The translations under genes were made by a program, and so were the position numbers. The notes under the pieces were generated by a model. The model had not been told where the DNA came from and did not search any database. It was given only the letters and a program-made list of their open reading frames with translations. From the NCBI GenBank assembly GCA_965153455.1, contig OZ234494.1, positions 10,478,001 through 10,542,000 on the forward strand: DNA of 64,000 nt. Direction: 5' to 3'. Source of the stretch: Sphagnum compactum (taxonomy: Eukaryota). Positions 2,889-25,942 of this stretch are shown in pieces; the first letter of the stretch is position 1; the number at the start of each line of letters is the position of its first letter.

Positions 2889-3911
2889 TCAGAAAGGCAC
2901 AAGCTCCTCAACAAAAGGTGTGACATTATAGGCATAAGAGGAATCTAAGAGGAATTCGAAACTGTCTACTGCAGGCGTCATCCATTCGTCTCCCAAGGCA
3001 ATGTCGCTGAATCCGGAGTAACCATCAAATCCTTCTTCCAAGGACCAGGTTACTGCTGCTGCTGCGGCGTTGTGCGCATTTTCCAGCGTGTCGACGAACG
3101 CAGGAACTTCTCCATGAGCTACAGGAGTCATAGAACGATTCTCATCATTCAGGACTGTTTTTTCCTTTCCAACGTCGTCAGATCTTCTGGCTTTGTCAGC
3201 ACCGGCGCTTGAAGCAGCGCACTCCACTCTCTCATTGCAGTCCACCACACGAAAGCACATGTTGAGCGGAAGAGCATTGCCTCCATGGTTCAGCATCGGA
3301 AGAATGTCAAATCTCTCGCATACAGCGAAATCGCCACCCGTTAAGTTACTGCTGCTGGAGCACCCGACAGATACAGCAGCGGCAGCAGCGCTAGAGAATC
3401 CGGGCATATTCCAGAAATCGTCGCCCCAGCTCGCAAACGATGTTGTACGAGGCGGCGCCTCCTCTTCACCAGTGCAAGGTATGCTGGAAACAACGGCATG
3501 ATCCTCGGACTCAGATAAGCCTAATTCCTCTTCCAGGTTTCTTAGAACTCGAGCCGCATTCTTTTTGCTCACAGCGCTATCTGAAGAACCGACCAGTTCC
3601 TCTCCGATCAAAGACTTTTCCAAGTCTCTCACAACAGAAATGCTCTCGACGTTAGATCCGTCTTCTTCGCTGCCAGTGACAGCAGACAAACACTCGTCGC
3701 TGCAGGTGCTCCCATCTCTCGGCTGCACGGAAACCCCAAGAACAGAAGAAAAATGCGACTCGGAGCGATCACTGGAACGCTGCCGCTTACTGACTGGAGC
3801 TTCAGCCTCATCCACTTCGCCAACAGCATCATCATCGCCAAAGACCACCAGCACATCATCATTCCTCACCCGTTTCGCTTCACTTTCCTCAACGTAAGAC
3901 AGCAGCGCCAT
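2889..3911 (-). CDS. Intronless ~340-aa acidic/Ser-rich hypothetical protein
   Basis: Long GC-richer ORF with first ATG at 3911 (MALLSYVEESEAKRVRNDD). The motifs EAKRVR.DD, SVVRDLE and LEEELGL recall the uncharacterised plant AT1G13360-like family (from memory, unverified). Confidence 0.75.
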   Translation of the reverse strand: MALLSYVEESEAKRVRNDDVLVVFGDDDAVGEVDEAEAPVSKRQRSSDRSESHFSSVLGVSVQPRDGSTCSDECLSAVTGSEEDGSNVESISVVRDLEKSLIGEELVGSSDSAVSKKNAARVLRNLEEELGLSESEDHAVVSSIPCTGEEEAPPRTTSFASWGDDFWNMPGFSSAAAAAVSVGCSSSSNLTGGDFAVCERFDILPMLNHGGNALPLNMCFRVVDCNERVECAASSAGADKARRSDDVGKEKTVLNDENRSMTPVAHGEVPAFVDTLENAHNAAAAAVTWSLEEGFDGYSGFSDIALGDEWMTPAVDSFEFLLDSSYAYNVTPFVEELVPF

Positions 3912-4678
3912 AACGAAAGTATAACGTGAGTGCCACACAGAGAACGCAAACTACTGTCCTCCTCCGAGACCACTTAAAATTGAAGCAAACATGCAAGAGA
4001 ATGACAGCAGAGAGAGACACAAGAGAAGCCGAGGCGGAGCTTTCTTTATAATATTATACAACAAGAAAAGAGCACGACAGCACCACAGAGGACTGACGAC
4101 TCAAGTACATCCGTCACAGGTAGAAAGGATCGGCATTATAGCGGACGCAAAGACAGCCGACGTCAAGAAAATCATTACAGGAAAAAAGAAAACACGCACA
4201 CAACAACACCAAGAAAACGCTAAGAAAGAAAACAAATTCCAATCTCTGAAGATTTTTTTTCTTTTTGGAAAAAGTACAAAAAAAAAACGGAGCTCCGGAA
4301 GCAGTAACAGCAGAAAGAGAAAATTTGAAAAAGCGAGATGCTGCCGCAGTCTGTTGTGGAAGTCGGTGAGGAAATGGAGAAGCGGAGTAAGAGCTGAGTC
4401 GCTGACGCACTTCACAGCGACGGCGGCGGCAGCGAGCGAGCGAGAGAGAGCGGCTGGCGGGAAAAGAGGGGCATGGAATTGGCAACAAAATTAGTAACTT
4501 AAATCTGGCGAGAAAAAAGTGATTTTTTTTTTGGTGGCGAATTATCGCCATTTAACTAATTTTGCTATTTTTGGGCTTTAATTTCGTCAAGTTTTGGATT
4601 TAAAAATTTGGAAAAAAGAAAAAGAAAACACTGCACCCATCGTGTTTACTGCATAAAGTAAAGCTAACTGGGAACCCA

Positions 4679-6312: not shown

Positions 6313-7495
6313 TGAGACTTTGGCTACAAACAAAAATTCCTAAAAATCGTTGGTGCTGAAAGTAAGGTAGCACTTAGCACCTAGACCAGCTATGCTTGCT
6401 ACAAAATAGAGTAACTATGGCAGGTACACAAGATGGTACTTACTACTATGAATGCAAATGTGTACACATTTGTGTATACGACTAGGTCAGCTGCAGCATA
6501 TGAAAGCCTTAAATGCAACTTATATGCTGATTGACAAGTTTTATACTGATATTGGGTGGTCCTTAGAATGAGGGACAGATACCTTTTGGTTATCAACCTG
6601 GGTATTACTCACTTACTCACTGGTTCTCAAAATTTTCAAACAACTGGATTTGATATATTAATCATAGTTCTAAGAAAATAAGAGAGTCAAATCTTTGTAG
6701 AACATGAAATGATCTAAGTAAACATGGTTCCCATTCAAAGAACGATGGTTTCTGATGGATGGTGCATTGGTGGGTTCTCAGCCACATAATCCCTTCAAAG
6801 GACAATGGACAGCTCGGCCTGGCACAGTGCCTCTGTAGTTATCTACACTTCTGACTGAAGAAAGCTTCACTTTCACTTGGCTACTGGTGTGCAGATTCTT
6901 TTGATGGATTGTGTGAACAATTATTATTGCTTCAGTGATGTCAACAAGGAATTCTGGAATCATGATCAGAGTGCTTTCACCAGATGCATTTAATCTTAGT
7001 GTTTTAAGTTACATACTTGGGGGAATACTTTGTTTGTGAGAGGAGAAAGGGGCATGTTAAACACCCCTTATGAACTTTGCGGGTGTTAGTTAGGGGGCAA
7101 TGTCTTCCACAATTGCACAATTCATGGTCTGCAAAAAAAATGTATTCTCTGCAAATTCATGTATTCATATCATGCAAAAAAATGCATTCTCTTGTTTCTG
7201 AAATGGATTTTCTCTTCCATTTGTGCCCCCCAGCCAAACAAAACCAAAAGTAAATAAAAATCTTACAGGTTGCAATTGTTCACTAGTTCCAAGTTTCAAC
7301 CCACAAGCATTCAAGAGACAAGCCAAGTACCTACCTGTAGTCTAATTTTATCAGTTTCTAAACTATTTGACATACTGTAGCCTAGGGTCAGTTTCCACAT
7401 TGACAAAATGATTTGTTTTTTCCAAGAAATGAATTCTTTTTTAGTTTTGAAGTATTATTATTTCCATCATTTACTATAATACTGTGATATGAGTA

Positions 7496-7521
7496 CCGTA
7501 GTGCTCACCCTAAACCCCGCA
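7496..7521 (+). repeat. Left TIR CCGTAGTGCTCACCCTAAACCCCGCA
   Basis: Exact reverse complement of 10794-10819. Confidence 0.97.
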
Positions 7522-7709
7522 CATAAATAATTGCTCATCGAGGGTGCGGGGATAGGAAAATAGTCTCTAGAGGGTGCGGGAAGGGCTTCTGCGGGGAAAT
7601 AAATAATAGGGTCTGAGCCACTGCGGGGAAGTTGGTGCGGGGTTCAAAAATAAAGGGCTTGGCGCGGAAATCAATGAGTCCGCGGAGGGCCTTAGCACAG
7701 CAAAGTAAG

Positions 7710-10578
7710 ATGGCACTCTTCAAGTTCGGATTCAAGAAGGGCATCAGCGAGATCGAGGCAGAGGAGCAGCGGCAGAGACAAGCGGAGAAGGCCAGAGAGA
7801 AGGATCTTGCAGATAAGGAGGCTGCAGCCCAAGCAGCAGCAGATGCACCACCTAAGAGGAAGCCTGGGAGGCCACCACTGGTTCACAAAGCAAAGCTGAA
7901 AGGCAAGCAGGCGACGGGACGCAAGCTCACGAGGTAGGCATGTCTTGGTGTGTAGCTGATCACTTGCTGGCAAGGATTAACTTCTTGCTTCCTATCTGCT
8001 GACAAGATCTAAGCTGGCTTCCAGAACAGAGTAGCTTCTTGCTTCCTATCTGCTGATAAGATTAAAACAAGCTTCCAGAGAAGAGCCACACTAATAAGGG
8101 CTTGTGTCTGCAGGAAACTAGCCTCAAAGAGCAACAAGAAGAAGAACTGGTGGAAGCCCTTCCTCATTGAGAGGATCCTGGCAGCCGTCCATGCCAAGAA
8201 CGGAGTGCGGCCTGTTGTGAAAGCACTGAAAGAGGGGCCCCTCAGAACGCTGTTTGAGGGGCTGGATGAGAGCACTGTGAGGGGGTGGTTCAAGAAGAGG
8301 GAAAGCCCAACTGGTCCATTCATCTTCACCAAAGAGGCCCAGGACAAGCTCAAAGCTGGCTTTTCTTCCCGTGGTGGCCGAAATCAGATGACCCTTTTCG
8401 TAGAGGTGAGCTGAAAGTCTGGCTTGCATTCGTTGACGTATGCACGCTTCCAGAGACACTTCCAATGGTTGTAATATGGTGAAATTAAATATTTTGGCTG
8501 TTGCAGGCACCGGACGTCGAGAAGGAGATTTACGAAGCTCTCTGTGCCCAGAGGATAGCTGGGAATGCAATCAACAGCGTCACCGCACAACACATCATGA
8601 TCGGCATCCTGGAGGCCCGCCGCCCTGACTTGTTGAAGAAGAACGGTGGGCGCTATGGGCCAAGCAGGCCAACTGTCCGCAGGTTCCTCAGGAAGAAGAT
8701 GGGATGGACATTCAGGTACAGGCACAATTTCTTGTGAGCTTGGGCTGCTTATTGTTTACAGCTCTGCCACTACATGTGCTCTTTATCCAAGCAGAACTTT
8801 GGGCGCCTACAGCCATTTCTTTGAAAGCGCCCGCTGCTGTGCAAGCGACCTAAGTACAGTTGAATTCTGCGCAGGCGTGCGACAGGCGCAGCACAGAAGT
8901 TGCCAAAGGACTATGAGCGTCTGGTGGACGAGATGAACCTGCGCATGGCATGGTGCTGCTACCTATATAAGATTCCGCCTGAGCTCGTCTTCAGCATGGA
9001 CGAAACGTTTGTGTGGTACACACCCATGGGGATGGCAACCACATACGATATCAGGAACACGAAACAGGTGTGCAGCTCTAATCTTTTGGGAAGCCTCACC
9101 GTGCTTGCCTGCCATGAAGATGAAATGGGTCAAATTGTGCAAGTTAATGCGCTAATGAACTCTTGCGATGGAGACAAGCAACCTTTGAATGCAGGTGCAA
9201 GTCACCGGCAAGGAGGACAAGCGTGGCCTCACAGCCTGCGTCACAACAACGCTCGCAGGGATTGTGCTGGCGCTGCAGCTGATCTACAGCGGCCAGAGGG
9301 AGAAGAGCCTGCCTAGGAAGGAGGCGCGCAGCGAGGCTGAGGCAGCTGGCTTCGTCTTCAGCTTGACCAAGAACCACTGGTGCACGCTCGAGTCCATGCA
9401 GGAGTGGATCGAGAAGGTGAATATCCTAAATAGCTTTGTTATACCTCCGCAGGCTGTAACATTGACTGGGGATGCAGTAATTCTGGACGATACCTGGTAC
9501 AAACATTTTTTTCAAAATCATCGTCACTCATAGCATTTGGTTCTTTGCAGCTGACCTACCCAGCCTATGTGCGCGTCTGCGAGGAGCGCACTGACCTGCT
9601 GCCTCCCCGCGAGCAGCCGCCGCTGCTGCAGCTGGATGTCTACAGCGTCCACCGCGGCGCCCCATTCAGGGACTGGCTGAAGCTGAACCACTCGTACATG
9701 CACATCGTGTTTGTGCCGGGAGGGACTACCTCGGTTGCTCAAGTAGCCATTCTTGACAGGGATAGCATTTTTCCTCTAATTGACTGCATTGGTCCTCTGA
9801 TTTTGCACTAACATTTAATGCTCTGTGAGATTGCTTTGCGTTGCTGTGGTCAAGCCATTGAAATCAAATCCTTGCCTGAGCAGCATTACTTTTTCCTCTC
9901 CCCATGATGCAGTTTAAAGAAGAAACTCATTTGTGAGTTGACAAAGCATTCATTCTTGCGCAGGTGGCAGATACTGTCCTCAACAAGCCGTTCAAGAACG
10001 CTGTACGCCAGCGGTTCTGCGACTGGTCAGCAAGCCTCGTGGCAGAGCAGGTCAAGTCGGGCATCGCGCCCAAGGACTGCAAGCTGGACCTCTCCGTCGG
10101 CCGCCTGAGGGACGAGGGCATCCACTGGATCTACGCTGGCTGGGAGCGCATCAAGGGAATGCAGCGCAGCGTGCTGGATGGCTACGCCAAGGCGAGCACT
10201 TTGCAGATCTTTGAGGAGGGGACGCGGCACCGGGCCGCAGCCGCATGCGCGTAGCTGGGCTTGTAGACAGAACTGCCGCGAGCGTCAACAGCAGAACTGA
10301 CACATGCAAACGAGGTGCCTGCCGAGGATGAGGAGGAAGCAGATGACGACAACGACAGCGATGCAGAGTCAGAGTTGAGCAGTGGGTTGTCAGATGCAGA
10401 GTGGGACTCGGACTTTGAGCTGCCTGCTGACAAATTGTCCATGTGCTTGAGGAGCATCCGCAAGAGAACAGCTGCAGTGAGCGTAGACCCTGCTGATGAG
10501 GCAGCAGCATCTGGCGCATCAGATGAGGATGGCGAATCAGCAGAGGATTCTGACAGTGCAGAGGCAGACGAGGAGTAG
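7710..10578 (+). pseudogene. DD37D pogo-like transposase. Exons 7710-7933, 8114-8405, 8507-8715, 8875-9067, 9195-9416, 9551-9742, 9964-10578. In-frame TAGs at 10252 and 10264.
   Basis: GT-AG splicing gives a continuous frame: AT-hook KRKPGRPP, HTH region (LDESTVRGW; PSRPTVRRFL..GWTFRRAT), then MDET, GKEDKR, NHWCT, LQLDVYSVH and FVPGGTTSVAQVADTVLNKPFK. It runs 540 aa to the first stop, or 648 aa including the acidic tail. Confidence 0.9.
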
Positions 10579-10793
10579 GGCAGCTCAGCTTGTGGAGCGC
10601 TCGCTTAGCAATAGCTAGGGAGTGCTGCAAAGGGTTCCTCAGGACCTTTGGGAAAGATTTGGGAAAATAGAAGTGTGCAATGGAACCGTGTTCGGCCAGC
10701 CCAACGATATAGAGGGGGACACTGACTGTAACTCTTAATCTGGCCTGCGGGGACTGCCTGCGGGAGGGAAAAAATAATTCCATTTTCTGGGGC

Positions 10794-10819
10794 TGCGGGG
10801 TTTAGGGTGAGCACTACGG
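10794..10819 (-). repeat. Right TIR TGCGGGGTTTAGGGTGAGCACTACGG
   Basis: Exact reverse complement of the left TIR, followed by TA. Confidence 0.97.
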
Positions 10820-10848
10820 TAATGAAATTATTCAGAGTAATATAAGCT

Positions 10849-11535
10849 TTGAATATCACTTATTTACATCAACATTATGAAAACATCAATCATGATCATA
10901 ACCTTCAAATGTCTTATATCTTATGTTTTATAGAAACAAGAATACACCATGCATAAATAGACGTGCACAAATTATAAATTCATCAAAATATTCATATATT
11001 TCAATCCATGATGGTCATAGGTTAATGATGATGTATGACATACACATGCACTTAGATTCCTTTAATACAATAACTAGTGATGGTTCATAATATATAACAT
11101 TAACTTTTAATATTAATACACGAAATAATACGCGAAATAAAAAACATATTGTGTGTATAGGCTCATTCATATTCAATTTTTACATTCTTAAACAATCTTC
11201 AAATTATAATTCTATAATCTCCTGAACATTGTCCAATCATCATTATGGGAGATTTGAATGTTGACATTCTAAAAGACAATAACCAACAAAAAAAAAACAA
11301 GAATTATTATATTTCATAGATAAATTCCAATTAAAATCACAATTTAGTGAAAACATCACAAAAGCTGGATCTCAATTAGACCATATATCGACAAATGTCC
11401 TTGGAAATGAATGCAAAACTAGTGTAACAAAAGCATGTTGGTCAAATTTTCATGAACCGATTTATATTACATTCAAATTACCAAACACACTTTCAATGTA
11501 TAAAGAAAAACCATTAATGTCTCCATTTATTTAAA
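10849..11535 (+). pseudogene. Decayed AP-endonuclease (EEP fold) domain, Helentron-type
   Basis: Broken-frame translation: LNITYLHQHYENI, ILCFIETR, IIMGDLNVDIL, GSQLDHISTN, WSNFHEPIY. These are the ordered APE motifs, with stops and frameshifts. Confidence 0.8.
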
Positions 11536-13962
11536 GTGTAACATTTGTGAAAATATGCATGTAAATGTTGCATTTTCCACCTAATTAATTACTCCCAAAA
11601 TGTTGGCACCTTGTGGGTTGAATTTGCATTTTTACATTTTTTCATCAACCATGTGCGAAAAAAAATCATAAATATCAATAACAAGACAAAAAAAAATTTG
11701 AATGATTTTTTATCCACATGTACACTCATCAAACATCATAACAAAACACCTTTCATGAAAAACCTAAAACCCAAATGCGACAAAAACAAATATGAAAATT
11801 GTCAAATTCTCAAACTTCAAAATGAAAAAGACTAAAAATAAAAATCTTTCTATGTAAATTATATCCATTCAATATTGATGTTTGTTTCAAACATTGCAAT
11901 ACCTCGTGCACATTGCTAAAAAAATTTACATTTTGAAAAACTTGGATTTTTTAAACAATATAATTATTTTCAACTTTATATTCATTTGCATGGTTAAAGA
12001 AAATAAAATCAAATTATGATTTCAATTTTTAAATATCCACAATGAATTCTAAGATGGTTAGAAAACTTTAATTTTTAGTACAAATGCGAACCTTTTTTTA
12101 ATAATCTTTCATAAAGCCAACAAACTTTCATCCAATATAACTTGAGTTCATAGTAGAACATTAAATGTAATACATTATTTTCAAAATAGAGCCTCTCGTG
12201 GTAGAGCCGCTTGTTTTCGCTCTTTCTACCCCTCTTGTCCTCCCACACACATACTCTCCTTCTCTCCTCTTCTCTATCATGCTACCACACACTCCCCTCT
12301 TCACTCTTTCTACCCTGATTATTCTCCCATAATCGCCCTCTCCTTTTTTCTACCCTTTTCTTTTTCTATCTTGCTACCACAAGCACCTTCCCTTTCTATG
12401 TCTTTCTGCCCTACTTATCTTCACACACACACTCTCTCCCTCGTTCTATCCCTTTCCCCTTTTTTTCATGCTGCCACACACACCTCTTTCAGAGACACAA
12501 AAAGGACGGAAACAAAAAAGAAAAAGAAAACTTACTTGGAGTGAATGAAGAAGCTACTGCCAAAAGAAAATTGAGAAGGCATTTGGAAGACAGGCATTGG
12601 AAGGCATTGCTCCTTGGATTGCTCGGAAAAAAGAAGAAGAAAAAAAAAACACTTGAAGGTGTTGCCACTAGAAGAAGAGAAAGAAGAAAAAAGAGAAAGA
12701 AAGTGTGCTGCTGCTAGATGAAGAGAAAACAGTGAGAAGAAGAGGGAAACAAAAACAACTTTGTTGTTGGGATAGCTATGGATGCTATTGCGTAGCTACA
12801 TGTTTAGTTTTTTTCAAATTGAGGTGTAGGGTCGAGCAGGGAAAGAGAAAAAAAAAGAAAAACCTAGTCTGGGTTCATCCCAAAACGACCTGAACGGCCC
12901 CATCCACCAACTGGTGCGATGGTGGGTGCTGGGTCACAGCGGCCGTCCTTTGGTGAAGTTGAAATTCTTAACTATTTGATGAGTTCAGTGAAGCTGAGTA
13001 ATTCAACCTAGATTGGCAACCCAACAACACCATTTGTAAAAACTGGATGGCTGAATGAGGATCTTCTTCTGGCCTCTGTAACAGATCTTTTGAGAATATG
13101 TATTGGATTTCAGCTTTCTAGGACAGCTCAAACTGAACAAGCCATTTACTCACCTTGTGCAAATGCAATGGCTGTGCCCCATGTGGCGAGTTCAAATAGC
13201 AACAATTAAAAATGCAAAATATTTCAAATGAATTGATAGTTCACGCTAACACCTGGTGAACATTCCTTCAAATGTGGAACTAAATGCAGACTGGCGAAAT
13301 AGAACAGCCTTTTTAAAAAAAACTGGCGAAAAGTAGCCGAAAAGCGAAAAAAAAAAAAAAACTCTGTGAAATTGCCTTTTAAAAAATAAGGTGTAAAATG
13401 ACAAATGTTGTCACATTGCATCCATCTGTCGCACATTTATAGCCTGTGAATATAGATAAAACAGCTGTGATTTCATCCATTTTTCATCCTTACCTGTCCA
13501 TTTGTCTCTTCATTTATTTTGTGTCCGTCGTTATGCTACAAACATCTAGATCATTAAAAGCAATGACCTATCCCCACTACTAGGGACATTGGTAGTCCTT
13601 GCCTAGTAGGGAGACCTTTAAGTTGAGACCTTTAAAAGTGACGACCTATCCCAATTCTTAATGAAATTTATTTGTTGCGTGTAGCTGAATCCCAATGCAG
13701 TGGTGCTTATTTAAATTGTGCATAGCCAAAGACCTTATGCTTTTGCACTTGTAACAAAACTACCTTGGTCATAGCCACCTGTTGGAATTTCTAAATTTCC
13801 TAAAAAAGAAAAAAAGGGCTAGAGTAAAAACCATCCATCACCAAAAATATGAACGGTTAATTGAAACAGTGCACCATCATCAATTGAATCCCCATTAAAC
13901 TCATGTGAATCTTCCTGAGTTGCTATTTTTCTTCTTTTGAAGCACAACAGCGAAAACCCCAT

Positions 13963-20995: not shown

Positions 20996-23900
20996 TTATG
21001 TGAGGCCAGCAACACTAGGACTCCTCTCCAATGGTGTGCTTCTTCTCGTTTCCCCACTACAGTCTCCTCCATCGAGATACAAACGCTTCAGTTGCTCCCT
21101 TTGGAATTCCAGGGCAATTTTTCCACAGGGCTGTTCTTCACCACTAGTGGTGTGTACTCTTGGTTGGGAGGTGACAGTGGTTACAACAACCATTGTGATC
21201 TCCACCAAGTCACCCATCCTCAGCTTCTGTTGAAAAGTATCGACAAATTGATGGTTCACTTTAACCCTTGCTTCTTTTCGACTTGGTCGTCTTGATGAAA
21301 CTGCTAGAGACTCAATATCTGACTTCCTGGTTGACATGAGATCAGCAACAGTTGAACCTGGAGGCAGTTCCTGTACAACCATCTGTAGACAAACCAGTTC
21401 CAAGTGTTGGAGGAGATGCGTTAAGAGACTGTGCCTTGTAAAGACATTGCAAGTAAGGTTCCGAATCCATCAATTTCAACTAGCGCAAAACACGGGAACA
21501 TAAAACAATTGTCAATAAAGGTCAAGGTGTGTTTGACTTACATTTTCATTTTCAACCTTGATGACTAGGAGTGGTTCAGTCCCACTGAGTTGAGGTCCGC
21601 AGCACATTGAAGCATAAGGGCAATCACTTGTGTGCACAGGAAAGGGACATGGTGGTTTCAAATCTGCTCTTAAGGGAGATAACCGCAACTTGGTGTCCAG
21701 GATCTCACTATGCCAGGTCAACACCCATCTAGCCCACTCAACCCGTGCAAGGATGAATGATGAGTGAATGCTATCATCCTCTTTATATCTCCAATGAGCA
21801 GCCAATCCAAACTCTGCCTGGTGATGCATTGCCACTGTTCTTATTTGGACCTCCAAGGGATATCCATCATCTCCCCACACAACTGTGTGTAGTGACTGAT
21901 ACCTGCATGGATTGTCGCATGGATCAATGATACTACAAGAAACTAGTCTACCGCAAAACTTTGGGCCAAAAATTGCACAACTGGAGCAAGCTCACCAATT
22001 CCATGGAGTTTAGGATGACTTACCCATTAGGCTTTGGCATAACTATGTAATCCTTGGATTGTCCTGGAATATGCAGCCAAAGTTCATGTACAATGCGTAA
22101 AGCATCATAACAACTTTTCTCATCGACAACAATAAGGCGCAGCCCTCGGACATCCAAAATTTCCTCAACAGTCCGTCCCTTCCTGCAAGCACAAAGCATG
22201 GGGCAGATTATGAGACTCAATTGTTCTCCTGCAGGAAGACACCCTCGCAGAGGATTTTCGCCTCAAGAACAAAAGTGAGGATCTACGAAGCTTCTGTTCT
22301 CTGACTACACAAAGGACAGCAGCATACATACCTCATCATTTTCTTGTAGATGCTGTACAGATTCTTGGGTCGTCCACTGAGGTCTGTAAATTGAACACCT
22401 TGTGATTGCAGAGCTTCGTATAGTTGATGAATTGAAGACATAACTATTCCCTCCCGGCAGCAACCAGACAGTCTTGTTGCTAACTCCTTATACTCTTCAG
22501 GCTTCAGATGCTTAAAGCAGAGATCTTCCAGTTCTGCTTTCCAGCTCCAAATACCTAACCGGTTAGCCAAAGGTGCAAAGATTTCAAGGGTCTCGTTAGC
22601 AATCTGGAGTTGTTTACGAAATGACAGAGCCCCCAGAGTCCTCATGTTGTGCAGGCGATCAGCAAGCTTGATAAGCACTACACGAACGTCAACCATCGAC
22701 AGAATCATGTTTCGTAATCGGTCTGCTTCCATTGGGTCACGAACTGTTTGATTGTCTCGGGCAAGTTGACTGAATTCACTTAATCTTGAAACCTGGAGAT
22801 AGAGTATCCATGCCATCATTAGTCCACGAAGGAGGTGCCGAAAGGACTCAAGAGATTCTTACACGAGTAGTTCAATCCAGTCAAACTGTACCCGTACATC
22901 AACCTCTCTACACCTAACCAAAGAATCACACTGTATTGGTTGAGCACTGAGACAGTACCCAGATGGTCTACAGGCTTTACAAATCAACACAAAAGCCTGC
23001 AAGGTTGCAACAACATACCCCAAGGACAATGTCTGCTATTTCATCTCCCATTGCACCCCGCAATAGCTGTTGACTCAAATTGGAATCATCAATGGCATCA
23101 TGTAATAACCCTGCAGCTACCACTGTACTAGTTGCCCCGGTTGCCGCCAAAATCAAGGCAGTTTCCACACAATGTGTAAGATATAGATCTCCATTCCGGC
23201 GAAACTGCACATCCAATTTGCACAAACCCTAATAAGACATTGCAAGACAGACAGATTGTAGACAACTGCAAAATGACAAAATCCTTAGATAACAATGCTC
23301 CTGATACCTCTAGAAAGAGGAAGAGGACAATTTCAGGCACTATGACACAAGGATCATCATATGTCACAGCACTGAACTTCAAGATGAGCTAAAGATAACC
23401 AGGGAACAAAAAACACAGTTCAGACTCTGTGAAGGATATCCCTCAAGAAACACACACCATGCAGACTAAGGAGTGGAGTGAAGCAGGCTGCAAAAGAGAC
23501 AATAAGATGACTGAAAGAAGCTGACAATCAAGCCAAGAAATGCAGACAGAGATTCCTCTGATAGCTCAGTGCCCAAAGCAGATAAATGCAGGCATGTTGT
23601 GAGAGAGTGGGTGCATACTTACTTGTCCCTTATGTGCATCGTCAGCTAGCCTGAAGGCCTTTACAACAGTTGGATCACAGAAGACCTTGTGCTTTGCCTG
23701 TGCACTTTCCAACAGCTTGATTGCAGATGAAGGCACCGGGGTATCAACTTCCTCTAGGGCATGAGGGGCCGAGGGAGGAGCTAGGGATGCTAATCCATTA
23801 GATTCCTCAAGTAATCGCAAAAGCTTCTCTCTGGCTTCAAGGACAGCTGGCGTCTCTCTTTGAAAATTGCTTGTGTTGTTTGCATCCCCTCCTCCTGCAG

Positions 23901-24738
23901 GAAATGGATTCACGGGAAGAGCAAGAGTGTCGAGAGGAGAGTCTCCAAGGGAAGAAGAAATGCTAGGAGCAAACCCTTGCACATGTAGAGGCAAATCTGA
24001 AGAAGAAGAAGAAGAAGAAGTACTATGAAGTGCTGTGTCAGAAGAAGCAGCAGCAATAAGAGAACCACCACGTATCCGAGACTGATGCTCATGAGAAGGA
24101 AAACCACCACCACCACCTCCCCCGTTCCTAACCTCGAAGCCAACACTTCTTGCGAAAGGCAGAGAGGATTTCCTGCGCGAGACGCGCTCCATGTGGTGGT
24201 GCGGATCCAACGGCGGCAAACCACTAGTGCCTACACTGTCCCTACTAGCACCACCACCACCAAGAGAGTGCGCGGGAGAGGAGCCATGGCGAGAAACTGT
24301 AGGGCTTTGCAACACAGAAACGGGGCTAACACGCTCTCCAGATCTCAGCGAAGAGGACACAGGAATACTCACCGCTCCAGTGCGAGTCTCTCCAGTCTCC
24401 CGTAACACACTCTGGTGGCCGGCTACATCAGTTCGCATGGTTCCAGAAGTACTACAAGAGTGGCCGGAGCATTCAAGCGCATCGCTATGTGACCAAGAAG
24501 AAGAAGAAGAAGAATGGTGTACAGCAGTAGCAACAGGTCTGGAATTAGCGTTGTTTGAAAACAGACTGGAAAGCCCTCCTTGAACTGATTTTGATGAGTG
24601 CGGATGTCGTGTATGCAAATCAACGTCCGTGGCCGTAGCTACTGTCTTCGTAGTACTAGTGCTTGTAGCATTTGGAGTGCTGCACCATGTTGCGGGTGGA
24701 GAACTCGAGTACATAGCCATGGATCCTGCTCCCAACAT
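20996..24738 (-). CDS. RSH: Plastid RelA/SpoT homologue ((p)ppGpp synthetase/hydrolase, RSH2/RSH3 type). Exons 24738(or 24720)-23623, 23204-23019, 22792-22332, 22182-22024, 21902-21542, 21382-20996.
   Basis: HD domain ([23 protein letters not shown]), synthetase motifs [33 protein letters not shown] and AAHWRYKE, and a C-terminal TGS-like region. Canonical, phase-consistent introns. Confidence 0.95.
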
Positions 24739-25942
24739 AAAGAAAAACGAACACAAACCCAATTCGCAAGATAGGTACTCACAAATTCCCAGTTGTTTTG
24801 CAAGTGCGCACCAGCACCCCTACGCCTTAACAAAACAAACAAAACAGCTTTCCCTAACCTCTACCTTATTTCACAGAGAGATCAACCCACCTAGCCACCC
24901 ACCCAAGTCTTGCAAAAACGGGAAAAAAAAAGGGAACCAAGATTCTCAAAAACTAAACTTGCGAGTAATAACTATGACCTAATAATCACTAGCTGTCGCT
25001 CTCACTCTTTGCTGCACTTTCTCTTCCCCGATCACATCATCCACCTGCAAAGTCGGCAAGTCGGCTCCACACTCATCTTCACATACCCAACTCCGCCGCT
25101 CTCCTCAAACGAAAAAAACAAAACCCAACCCAGTTAAAAAAGAAATCCACAGAGTGGAAACTGTGCATGAAATCCAGAGGTGGTGCAGTGGAGCCGACGA
25201 TTGCAAAGTGAATACGATTGCGCGTTTTTCCTTTCTTCCTTTTGTTTTCCTTCGCAGTTCCCTTCGAAATAAGATCGTTTTTTTCTTCTTTTTGTTTTGT
25301 TACGTAGTTTGGCGCGGGGGGGGAGTGGAGGTAGGCTACGTTGCTTGTTGCGCACTTGTCTTCCTTCCGTCGCTGCCTTGCCTTGCCTTGCCTTGCCTTG
25401 CAAGTTCCACGCCTCTAAGTAAGTACCAAACAGCCTTCCTGTCTTCGCTGTCTATGTATAGCCAAAAAGCCATATTGAAATTTTTTTAAATACTAAAATC
25501 AAGTTCTCTTTTTACATTTTCAATAGCCAAATTCTAACCAATTTTTTTCAAAAAAAATCGCCATATTTTTACACATTCTTTTTAAGTATGTAGCCAACCA
25601 TATAGAAGGATGTTTAAGGAATTCTTCTTTCATATTTTGGCTTGTAGTAGCCAAAAATATAGAAGGATGTTTTAAGGAATTCCTTTTTCATATTTGGCTT
25701 GTAGTAGCCAAATCCGGCTAAATCTTCGGTGGGTCATTGCCACTTTGGCTCATTAGACAAAATTGCCAAAAACAACACTGGTACCACCGAATGGACACAT
25801 ACGACACCTGCAGGGCAGGGCAGGGCAGGGCAGCAGGAGGCGGCTGGAACTCGGGCAGACCGTGTTTGTTTTTTTCGGGCTTTTGTCGTCGTCGTCGTTG
25901 GATCACCTCTCACGGTGGCAGTTGACACTGGCGTTGTCGTGT

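Follow-up and report, generated by a model that had tools for sequence, protein, structure and literature searches.

The 64,000-nucleotide stretch of the Sphagnum compactum genome analysed here (contig OZ234494.1 of assembly GCA_965153455.1, positions 10,478,001 to 10,542,000 of the forward strand; hereafter the window, in whose numbering all positions are given) carries a 3324-bp element at 7496-10819, its ends read from the sequence, which we assign with a probability of about 0.9 to the pogo superfamily of DNA transposons (IS630-Tc1-mariner group, Pfam DDE_1), as one copy of a multi-copy family. Judged from sequence comparison, the family appears to be resident in its host, multi-copy, decaying and of autonomous type. 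A preliminary description of this DNA had called the element a pogo-like transposon, and this is supported both by the DDE_1 relationship of the encoded protein and by the duplication of TA at the insertion site. The perfect terminal inverted repeats (TIRs) and intact TA duplication reported there were found as described, with TIRs of 26 bp and TA on both sides (Table 1). The same 26-bp ends, with 0-3 changes and each followed by TA, recur in 22 other copies from metagenomes, a recurrence that excludes chance.

Structure and classification of the element

Membership of the pogo superfamily follows from the TA duplication, the TIRs and the DDE_1 homology with its triad of catalytic aspartates (D-D-D), as the superfamily is characterized in the descriptive sections of Gao et al. 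2020 (PMC7386202). In those sections, pogo elements have a TA duplication, short TIRs and a DDE_1-type D-D-D core, as here, with a length range of 1.2-5.2 kb that includes that of the present element and a spacing between the second and third aspartates of DD29-59D (DD29-42D in Lemi, for example) that includes the value of 37 found here. The element differs from the pogo elements described there in that it resides in a moss, in that its gene is divided into seven exons by six introns, and in that its exons carry no N-terminal DNA-binding family detectable with Pfam.

The exons, the last of them read through its stop codon to 10254, join in frame into 540 codons, and the introns (180, 101, 159, 127, 134 and 221 nt) all run GT..GCAG, in agreement with the six short GCAG-ending introns of 101-221 nt given in the preliminary description. 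The catalytic triad falls at D284, D409 and D447, with spacings of 124 and 37 (DD37D), in aspartate columns that are common to the relatives in a protein alignment (A2), and exons 2-7 lie successively and collinearly along the full-length relatives in that alignment. The spliced protein matched 13 full-length relatives at 26-39.5% identity (E values of 4e-51 to 8e-90 in a local blastp against stored hits), and the Pfam cut-off for DDE_1 was passed by eight of ten relatives scanned, one of which also contained HTH_Tnp_Tc5. At 7851-7871, the first exon encodes the AT-hook-like motif K-R-K-P-G-R-P; six relatives, the Haematococcus and Riccia proteins discussed below among them, have G-P-G-R-P at the matching place (columns ~195-206 of alignment A2), and an AT-hook-like motif is conserved close to the N-terminus in this branch of pogo transposases.

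The motif TGCGGGG was matched nine times in the window, seven of them in the element ends, compared to an expectation of 1.9 for the whole window. Lemi1/Emigrant of Arabidopsis, which is plant pogo-like and is likened to the present element by description, has a protein that binds its TIRs and subterminal repeats in the account given in part of PMC1636448, and by this analogy the TGCGGG(G/A) subterminal motifs would be putative transposase-binding repeats.

Table 1 Features of the pogo-type element in the window
Feature	Position	Strand	Basis
Left copy of the TA target-site duplication	7494-7495		Sequence read
Left TIR, 26 bp, perfect pair with the right TIR	7496-7521	+	Sequence comparison
Four TGCGGGG motifs in direct orientation (7545, 7590, 7622, 7636), clustered in the 5' subterminal region	7545-7642	+	Motif count
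Exon 1: start codon, coiled N-terminus, AT-hook-like KRKPGRP	7710-7933	+	Gene model
Exon 2: first part of the predicted N-terminal DNA-binding region	8114-8405	+	Gene model, collinear with relatives
Exon 3: predicted second helix-turn-helix region	8507-8715	+	Alignment with residues 160-218 of relative P0113, its HTH_Tnp_Tc5 stretch
Exon 4: first catalytic Asp, SMDET, residue 284	8875-9067	+	Gene model, alignment
Exon 5: central part of the DDE_1 core; G or C at the end of 63 of 74 codons	9195-9416	+	Pfam (sub-threshold), alignment
Exon 6: second catalytic Asp, QLDVY, residue 409	9551-9742	+	Gene model, alignment
Exon 7 as far as the first premature stop, with the third catalytic Asp (QVADT, residue 447)	9964-10251	+	Gene model, alignment
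Two premature TAG stops	10252-10254 and 10264-10266	+	Comparison with 18 relatives
Remnant of the acidic C-terminal tail, outside the open frame; family stop at 10576-10578	10267-10578	+	Majority coding sequence
Point of the 80-bp deletion, private to the window copy	10729/10730		Comparison with other copies
3' subterminal TGCGGGG motifs (10746; 10794 within the TIR)	10746-10800	+	Motif count
Right TIR, 26 bp	10794-10819	-	Sequence comparison
Right copy of the TA target-site duplication	10820-10821		Sequence read

Family copies, insertion sites and decay

A search with exon 7 returned 21 protein clusters of 85-96% identity, all from metagenome or assembly sources, and a scan of metagenome contigs located 26 loci whose DNA is 93-97% identical to the window copy. 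The right end was followed by TA in 23 of 23 cases (the window copy included), at 19 distinct sites with flanks of 25-42% GC, and three more copies were full-length with TA on both sides. The flanks of the metagenome loci have almost nothing in common with the window, apart from two 83% matches of ~115 bp. Taken as a majority sequence, the coding region of the family stays open over 648 codons. A tblastn search of 187.5 kb of window and locus sequence, which is a small sample, turned up no family relics that are older and more decayed.

The differences that each copy has accumulated consist to ~70-100% of C>T or G>A changes, with a share above 90% in 12 of the 27 copies. Over all copies, the C>T rate was 7.1% at CG, 9.4% at CHG and 1.9% at CHH (H being A, C or T). 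Methylation of CG and CHG followed by deamination produces C>T changes as a plant-type signature, and the pattern of decay seen across the copies is as expected from plant-type CG/CHG methylation.

Two pairs of loci share an insertion site and allow the element to be compared with its own flank. At the site shared by L005 and L009, the element differs by 4.8% over 1120 nt and the flank by 1.9% over 210 nt, and at that shared by L017 and L019 the values are 0.75% and 0.16%. Since the flanks of L005 and L009 differ by 1.9%, at least one insertion is older than a host split of about 2%. The flanks of L009 and L014 are identical over 539 nt and their element parts differ by 1.8% (19 of 1071), so that either the assemblers mix paralogous copies or the element changes far faster than its flank.

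Several observations weigh against the reading of the element as a copy of an autonomous-type pogo family. Pfam was run on single exons and on the relatives rather than on the spliced protein; by exon, exon 5 alone matched DDE_1 (PF03184), with 12.5 bits compared to a cut-off of 22 (E = 0.11), and exons 1-3 matched no Pfam N-terminal DNA-binding family in this single-exon scan. No splice joints, and hence no spliced transcript, were seen in the one RNA library used (run X16), whose contigs span introns 2, 4 and 5 fully and introns 1, 3 and 6 partly, with some bins uncovered. All four full-length copies, including that of the window, have premature stops or frameshifts, and no intact copy is among them. 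Metagenome assemblies of repeats may also be mosaics, which makes the per-copy divergences approximate.

Damage in the window copy

At the site of the first premature stop, 17 of 18 relatives have Q and one has R, and at the second all 18 have Q; both stops are therefore C>T changes in CAG codons. All 18 relatives continue from exon 7 into a 108-aa acidic tail. The two CAG>TAG stops thereby shorten the 648-aa family protein to the 540-aa product. The 80-bp subterminal segment missing from the window copy, which holds two more TGCGGGA motifs, is kept in 22 of the 22 other copies that cover the site, and DNA runs X2, X8 and X10 contain contigs with extra letters at that point. The copy is thus probably not autonomous, though its perfect ends might still allow movement in trans.

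Of its 3324 sites, the window copy departs from the majority of the 27 copies at 42 (1.26%). These are transitions throughout, 38 of them C>T or G>A. The other copies lie 2.2-5.4% from the majority, which makes the divergence of the window copy the lowest of all. By this measure, the copy would have inserted later than most of the sampled copies, and yet it is truncated and partly deleted. Its earlier designation as young therefore holds for its divergence and fails insofar as it implies a pristine element. A ratio of nonsynonymous to synonymous changes (pN/pS) of 0.53 against the majority was dropped as a test of selection, since C>T changes fall mostly at GC-rich third positions and inflate the synonymous count.

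The history of the family may be pictured as follows. From a gene of seven exons, the family would encode a 648-aa transposase with an AT-hook-like motif, two helix-turn-helix regions, a DD37D core and an acidic tail, which would bind the 26-bp ends and the TGCGGG(G/A) repeats and excise the element; the excised element would then insert at a TA that is duplicated in the process. The window copy would have been inserted in this way and then struck by host silencing, acquiring its transitions, two stops and 80-bp deletion. Its GC-rich make-up would be that of the founder, the host decay at CG and CHG not yet having removed the GC richness.

The locus in other sequencing runs

DNA runs of four organism labels and one moss-metagenome run contain more than half of the sampled words, and contigs of the element were present in all three DNA runs examined (organisms A, B and C). 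Among the contigs of an independent run of organism A, one equals the left flank (6500-7401) with zero differences, and another crosses the right junction (10793-10914), again with zero differences. Divergence from the window in the single-copy left flank is ~1.5% in organism B and 3-4.5% in organism C. At the listed places, element contigs of the three DNA runs have C or G where the window has T or A, in agreement with C>T changes private to the window copy. Contig depth was considered as a measure of copy number and dropped: element contigs were several-fold above flank contigs in depth, and such depths are not copy numbers.

Because the organism A contig spans the right junction without a difference, a chimeric assembly, which the preliminary description had raised as a check on its own reading, is unlikely. 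The wider possibility that the element is an assembly artefact or contaminant, algal DNA misjoined into a moss contig, would account for the sharp change of composition at the element borders, but it must also accommodate the exact TIRs with their TA duplication, the 18 other sites of insertion, which lie in AT-rich surroundings on independent contigs from metagenomes, and a decay in CHG context that is typical of a plant host. Together with the junction contig, these make it exceedingly improbable, and for the family as a whole it is refuted.

In organisms B and C (runs X8 and X10), contigs join GATATGAG-TA-ATGAAATT across the element (joints 7492>10819 and 7493>10821), as an empty site would. 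These joints are a hint of an empty site, the allele that the preliminary description had suggested looking for, and may instead be paralogous, as they have 21 letters on the shorter side at 90% likeness and adjoin high-copy repeats (7372-7411 and from ~10925 onward).

The joints bear on the proposal of a recent invasion from an algal epiphyte or symbiont, with the window copy fresh and intact. Along with the perfect TIRs, the intact TA duplication and the lowest divergence among the 27 copies, they speak for such an invasion. A fresh copy, however, is at odds with two premature stops and an 80-bp deletion, and a recent arrival with a family that occupies at least 19 sites, has copies up to 5.4% from the majority and includes one insertion common to lineages whose flanks are 1.9% apart. 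The family's sampled words and contigs are also spread over the organism labels described above, and the searches run returned no near-identical sequence outside AT-rich, moss-like contexts. We regard a recent invasion as improbable, and that part of the preliminary description is not upheld; an epiphyte or symbiont as donor is pure conjecture.

Composition compared to the host

The retained CpGs and host-unlike composition noted in the preliminary description were borne out. GC content is 0.535 in the element and 0.378 in the rest of the window, the CpG observed/expected ratio 0.62 and 0.36, respectively, and composition shifts sharply at the element borders. GC content at third codon positions (GC3) is 0.75 in the element coding sequence and 0.735 in the family majority, compared to 0.39-0.49 in six host reading frames, and the earlier count of G- or C-ending codons in exon 5 is correct (Table 1). 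The FKBP19 exon that had served as the host comparison was not found: none of nine upstream frames of at least 45 aa matched FKBP in Pfam, nor did any in a rough motif scan. Two of the six frames used here instead belong to a RelA/SpoT-homologue gene (those with HD_4 and RelA_SpoT).

With C-to-T erosion of silenced copies, a GC3 of 0.75 amid frames of 0.39-0.49 suggests that the founder has not been present very long on an evolutionary scale. This argument from residence time could be weakened if active copies escape methylation or if gene conversion is biased. The intron features that had been taken as algal marks carry no such weight, as TGCAG/G is the general plant acceptor consensus and GCAG acceptor ends with introns of 100-220 nt are normal in land plants too.

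Relatives of the transposase and the origin of the family

A profile of exon 7 and the tail was searched against 1.84 billion representatives and yielded 99 proteins at E <= 0.001. Organism names were looked up for 20 of these 99 representative hits, and the named proteins are three from Haematococcus lacustris, one from the liverwort Riccia sorocarpa and a fragment that shares a cluster with a Haematococcus protein and is filed under a Bosea metagenome-assembled genome (MAG). Further Haematococcus proteins comprise the 737-aa P0162, taken from the cluster of a hit, and six from a search with a Haematococcus protein. Among full-length named matches P0162 ranks first, with 39.5% of residues identical over 420 aa (E = 8e-90); the Riccia protein, the sole other bryophyte hit among those named, has 25.9% identity.

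Compared as proteins, the Haematococcus lacustris DDE-1 proteins (KAJ9519827.1 = P0162, GFH32369.1 = P0076 and paralogues) are thus the closest named relatives. They have in common with the window protein the motifs SMDETF, QLDVY.VHR and VAQV.DT..N.PFK around the three catalytic aspartates as well as the N-terminal G-P-G-R-P, and their family, too, is multi-copy, with nine proteins of 71-99% identity in the alga. Unlike them, the window protein has different residues at ~60% of positions and another C-terminal tail, and it is less rich in G, A, R and P, with a GARP/FYMINK ratio of 1.24 compared to 1.9.

A quick maximum-likelihood tree built from 45 proteins unites the window protein in a clade with four proteins of Haematococcus lacustris, at an SH-aLRT support of 100, and sets Riccia in its other half, on a long branch. 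This tree holds two named taxa, its branches are long (a path of ~2.1 changes per column) and its rows are relatives found from this element. Transposon genes are, moreover, poorly annotated in plant proteomes. Over exon 7, P0064 (46% over 92 aa) and P0161 (42%) score above Haematococcus, and a tree of 146 C-terminal fragments was unresolved near the window row.

Other searches returned nothing closer. A profile search with alignment A2 gave 49 hits with no donor-grade similarity, a search of viral contigs with alignment A1 gave no relative, and a search with a Haematococcus protein returned its nine paralogues only. A scan of prokaryote genome contigs with P0162 and P0163 for stray algal DNA found nothing. 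Protein Atlas clusters labelled Basidiomycota, Oomycota and Streptophyta (scores 0.90-0.93, without alignment) were treated as loose leads and were not used as evidence.

Two of the database entries have unusual contexts. P0083 (Haematococcus lacustris KAJ9528983.1) is a 1053-aa protein with ankyrin repeats and a protein kinase domain, in which residues 872-966 are a piece of the transposase family; either a transposon insertion has been absorbed into the model of a host gene, or the protein may be a fusion. P0163, a 104-aa fragment filed under a MAG of the alphaproteobacterial Bosea sp., clusters at >=90% with a Haematococcus transposase and is likeliest to be algal DNA binned into that MAG.

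Several distant relatives (P0064, P0072, P0092, P0144 and others, at 30-46% identity) are reading-frame fragments whose start coincides with the exon 7 boundary at residue 445 (9964) or lies only a few residues from it, while P0161, P0068 and P0075 read across it. Intron 6 may have held its position since before this family arose, yet that position is not universal.

Published surveys offer few points of comparison. In its treatment of plants, PMC7386202 gives Lemi, from 23 species of eudicots, as the only pogo family of land plants, together with Fot-like elements in one green alga, and reports no bryophyte. Taking the corresponding parts of this and another 2020 survey (PMC7325037) together, land-plant pogo elements come only from eudicots (Lemi) and Selaginella, and one of the two gives no Tc1/mariner element in Chlorophyta. 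Our literature search, which did not cover the species tables of the surveys, found no description of a pogo/mariner element, or of an element linked to horizontal transposon transfer, in Sphagnum or any moss.

The proposed green-algal link therefore stands insofar as the closest named relatives are chlorophyte, and it falls short in that no donor was found and the best match reaches 39.5% amino-acid identity. The algal grouping points in the direction of the preliminary description, but on the protein comparisons it lies far below the similarity that would indicate transfer. That the family came at some time from an alga or another GC-rich source appears plausible, and the 39.5% match does not settle the source of the founder.

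We tentatively propose, at somewhat less than even odds, that the founder came into the moss lineage out of a GC-rich eukaryote, with a green alga as the most likely donor, within approximately the last tens of millions of years and before the sampled copies spread. The GC3 of the element and of the family majority is an imbalance that should not persist indefinitely under C-to-T erosion, the SH-aLRT-supported clade unites the window protein with four Haematococcus proteins and leaves the bryophyte relative in the other half of the tree, the small sample of 187.5 kb contains no older relics, and the portions of the two 2020 surveys considered above record no bryophyte pogo element. The similarity to the best algal match is nevertheless low, with none of donor grade among the 99, 49 and nine hits or in the viral contigs. 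As the tree has two named taxa, the clade may be a product of ancient paralogous lineages and of the poor annotation of plant transposons, and with names looked up for 20 of 99 hits, the higher scores of P0064 and P0161 over exon 7 also count against it.

That the family is instead an old resident, descended vertically from the common ancestor of green plants with its GC richness kept by unmethylated master copies or biased gene conversion, appears slightly less likely still, and it has evidence of its own. The 39.5% identity to a chlorophyte family fits a very old divergence, the frames that start at residue 445 suggest an intron 6 position older than the family, and the decay observed here concerns silenced copies only. 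A GC3 of 0.75 would, however, be hard to maintain for long among genes of 0.39-0.49, the placement of Riccia puts a bryophyte relative on a different branch, and the lack of relics in 187.5 kb is weak evidence in the same direction.

The entry of a founder from outside can be given a more specific form, which we consider doubtful as a whole: a pogo lineage otherwise seen in chlorophytes would have crossed into the ancestor of closely related mosses, kept its algal-style codon usage and six introns and spread to dozens of TA sites, and it would now be in the course of erasure by CG/CHG methylation.

Neighbouring sequence

The repeats that adjoin the element lie in AT-rich sequence, and very high-copy repeats lie on both sides of it, at 7372-7411 and 10925-11800. 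Summed contig depth over these flanking repeats is in the thousands in runs X8 and X10, compared to ~40 over the single-copy flank, and contigs with loose ends are numerous at 7372-7378 and 7408-7411. The element may lie inside or next to another repeat family.

The RelA/SpoT-homologue (RSH) gene of the host lies on the minus strand at 20996-24819, with Pfam matches to HD_4 (22286-22858) and RelA_SpoT (21515-21991) and a long Ser-rich N-terminal frame at 23566-24819; the GC3 of its frames is 0.39-0.43. A 353-aa open frame on the minus strand at 2889-3950 occupies a patch of 51% GC, has no Pfam match and has a GC3 of 0.49. It may be a host gene with no assigned family, and it shows that the window has GC-richer patches beyond the transposon.

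Implications

Without a donor, the element is an ordinary decaying DNA transposon of interesting composition. Should a close donor come to light among the algae, the element would represent a rare transfer of a transposon between a green alga and a land plant, caught mid-decay. As a well-preserved, multi-copy pogo family in a moss, with its nearest named kin in a chlorophyte, it extends the map drawn by the 2020 surveys, as far as their sections cited here reach (PMC7386202, PMC7325037). The family also forms a natural series for the rate at which methylation erodes a GC-rich invader, with dozens of copies in which C>T changes stand at 7-9% at CG and CHG compared to 2% at CHH.

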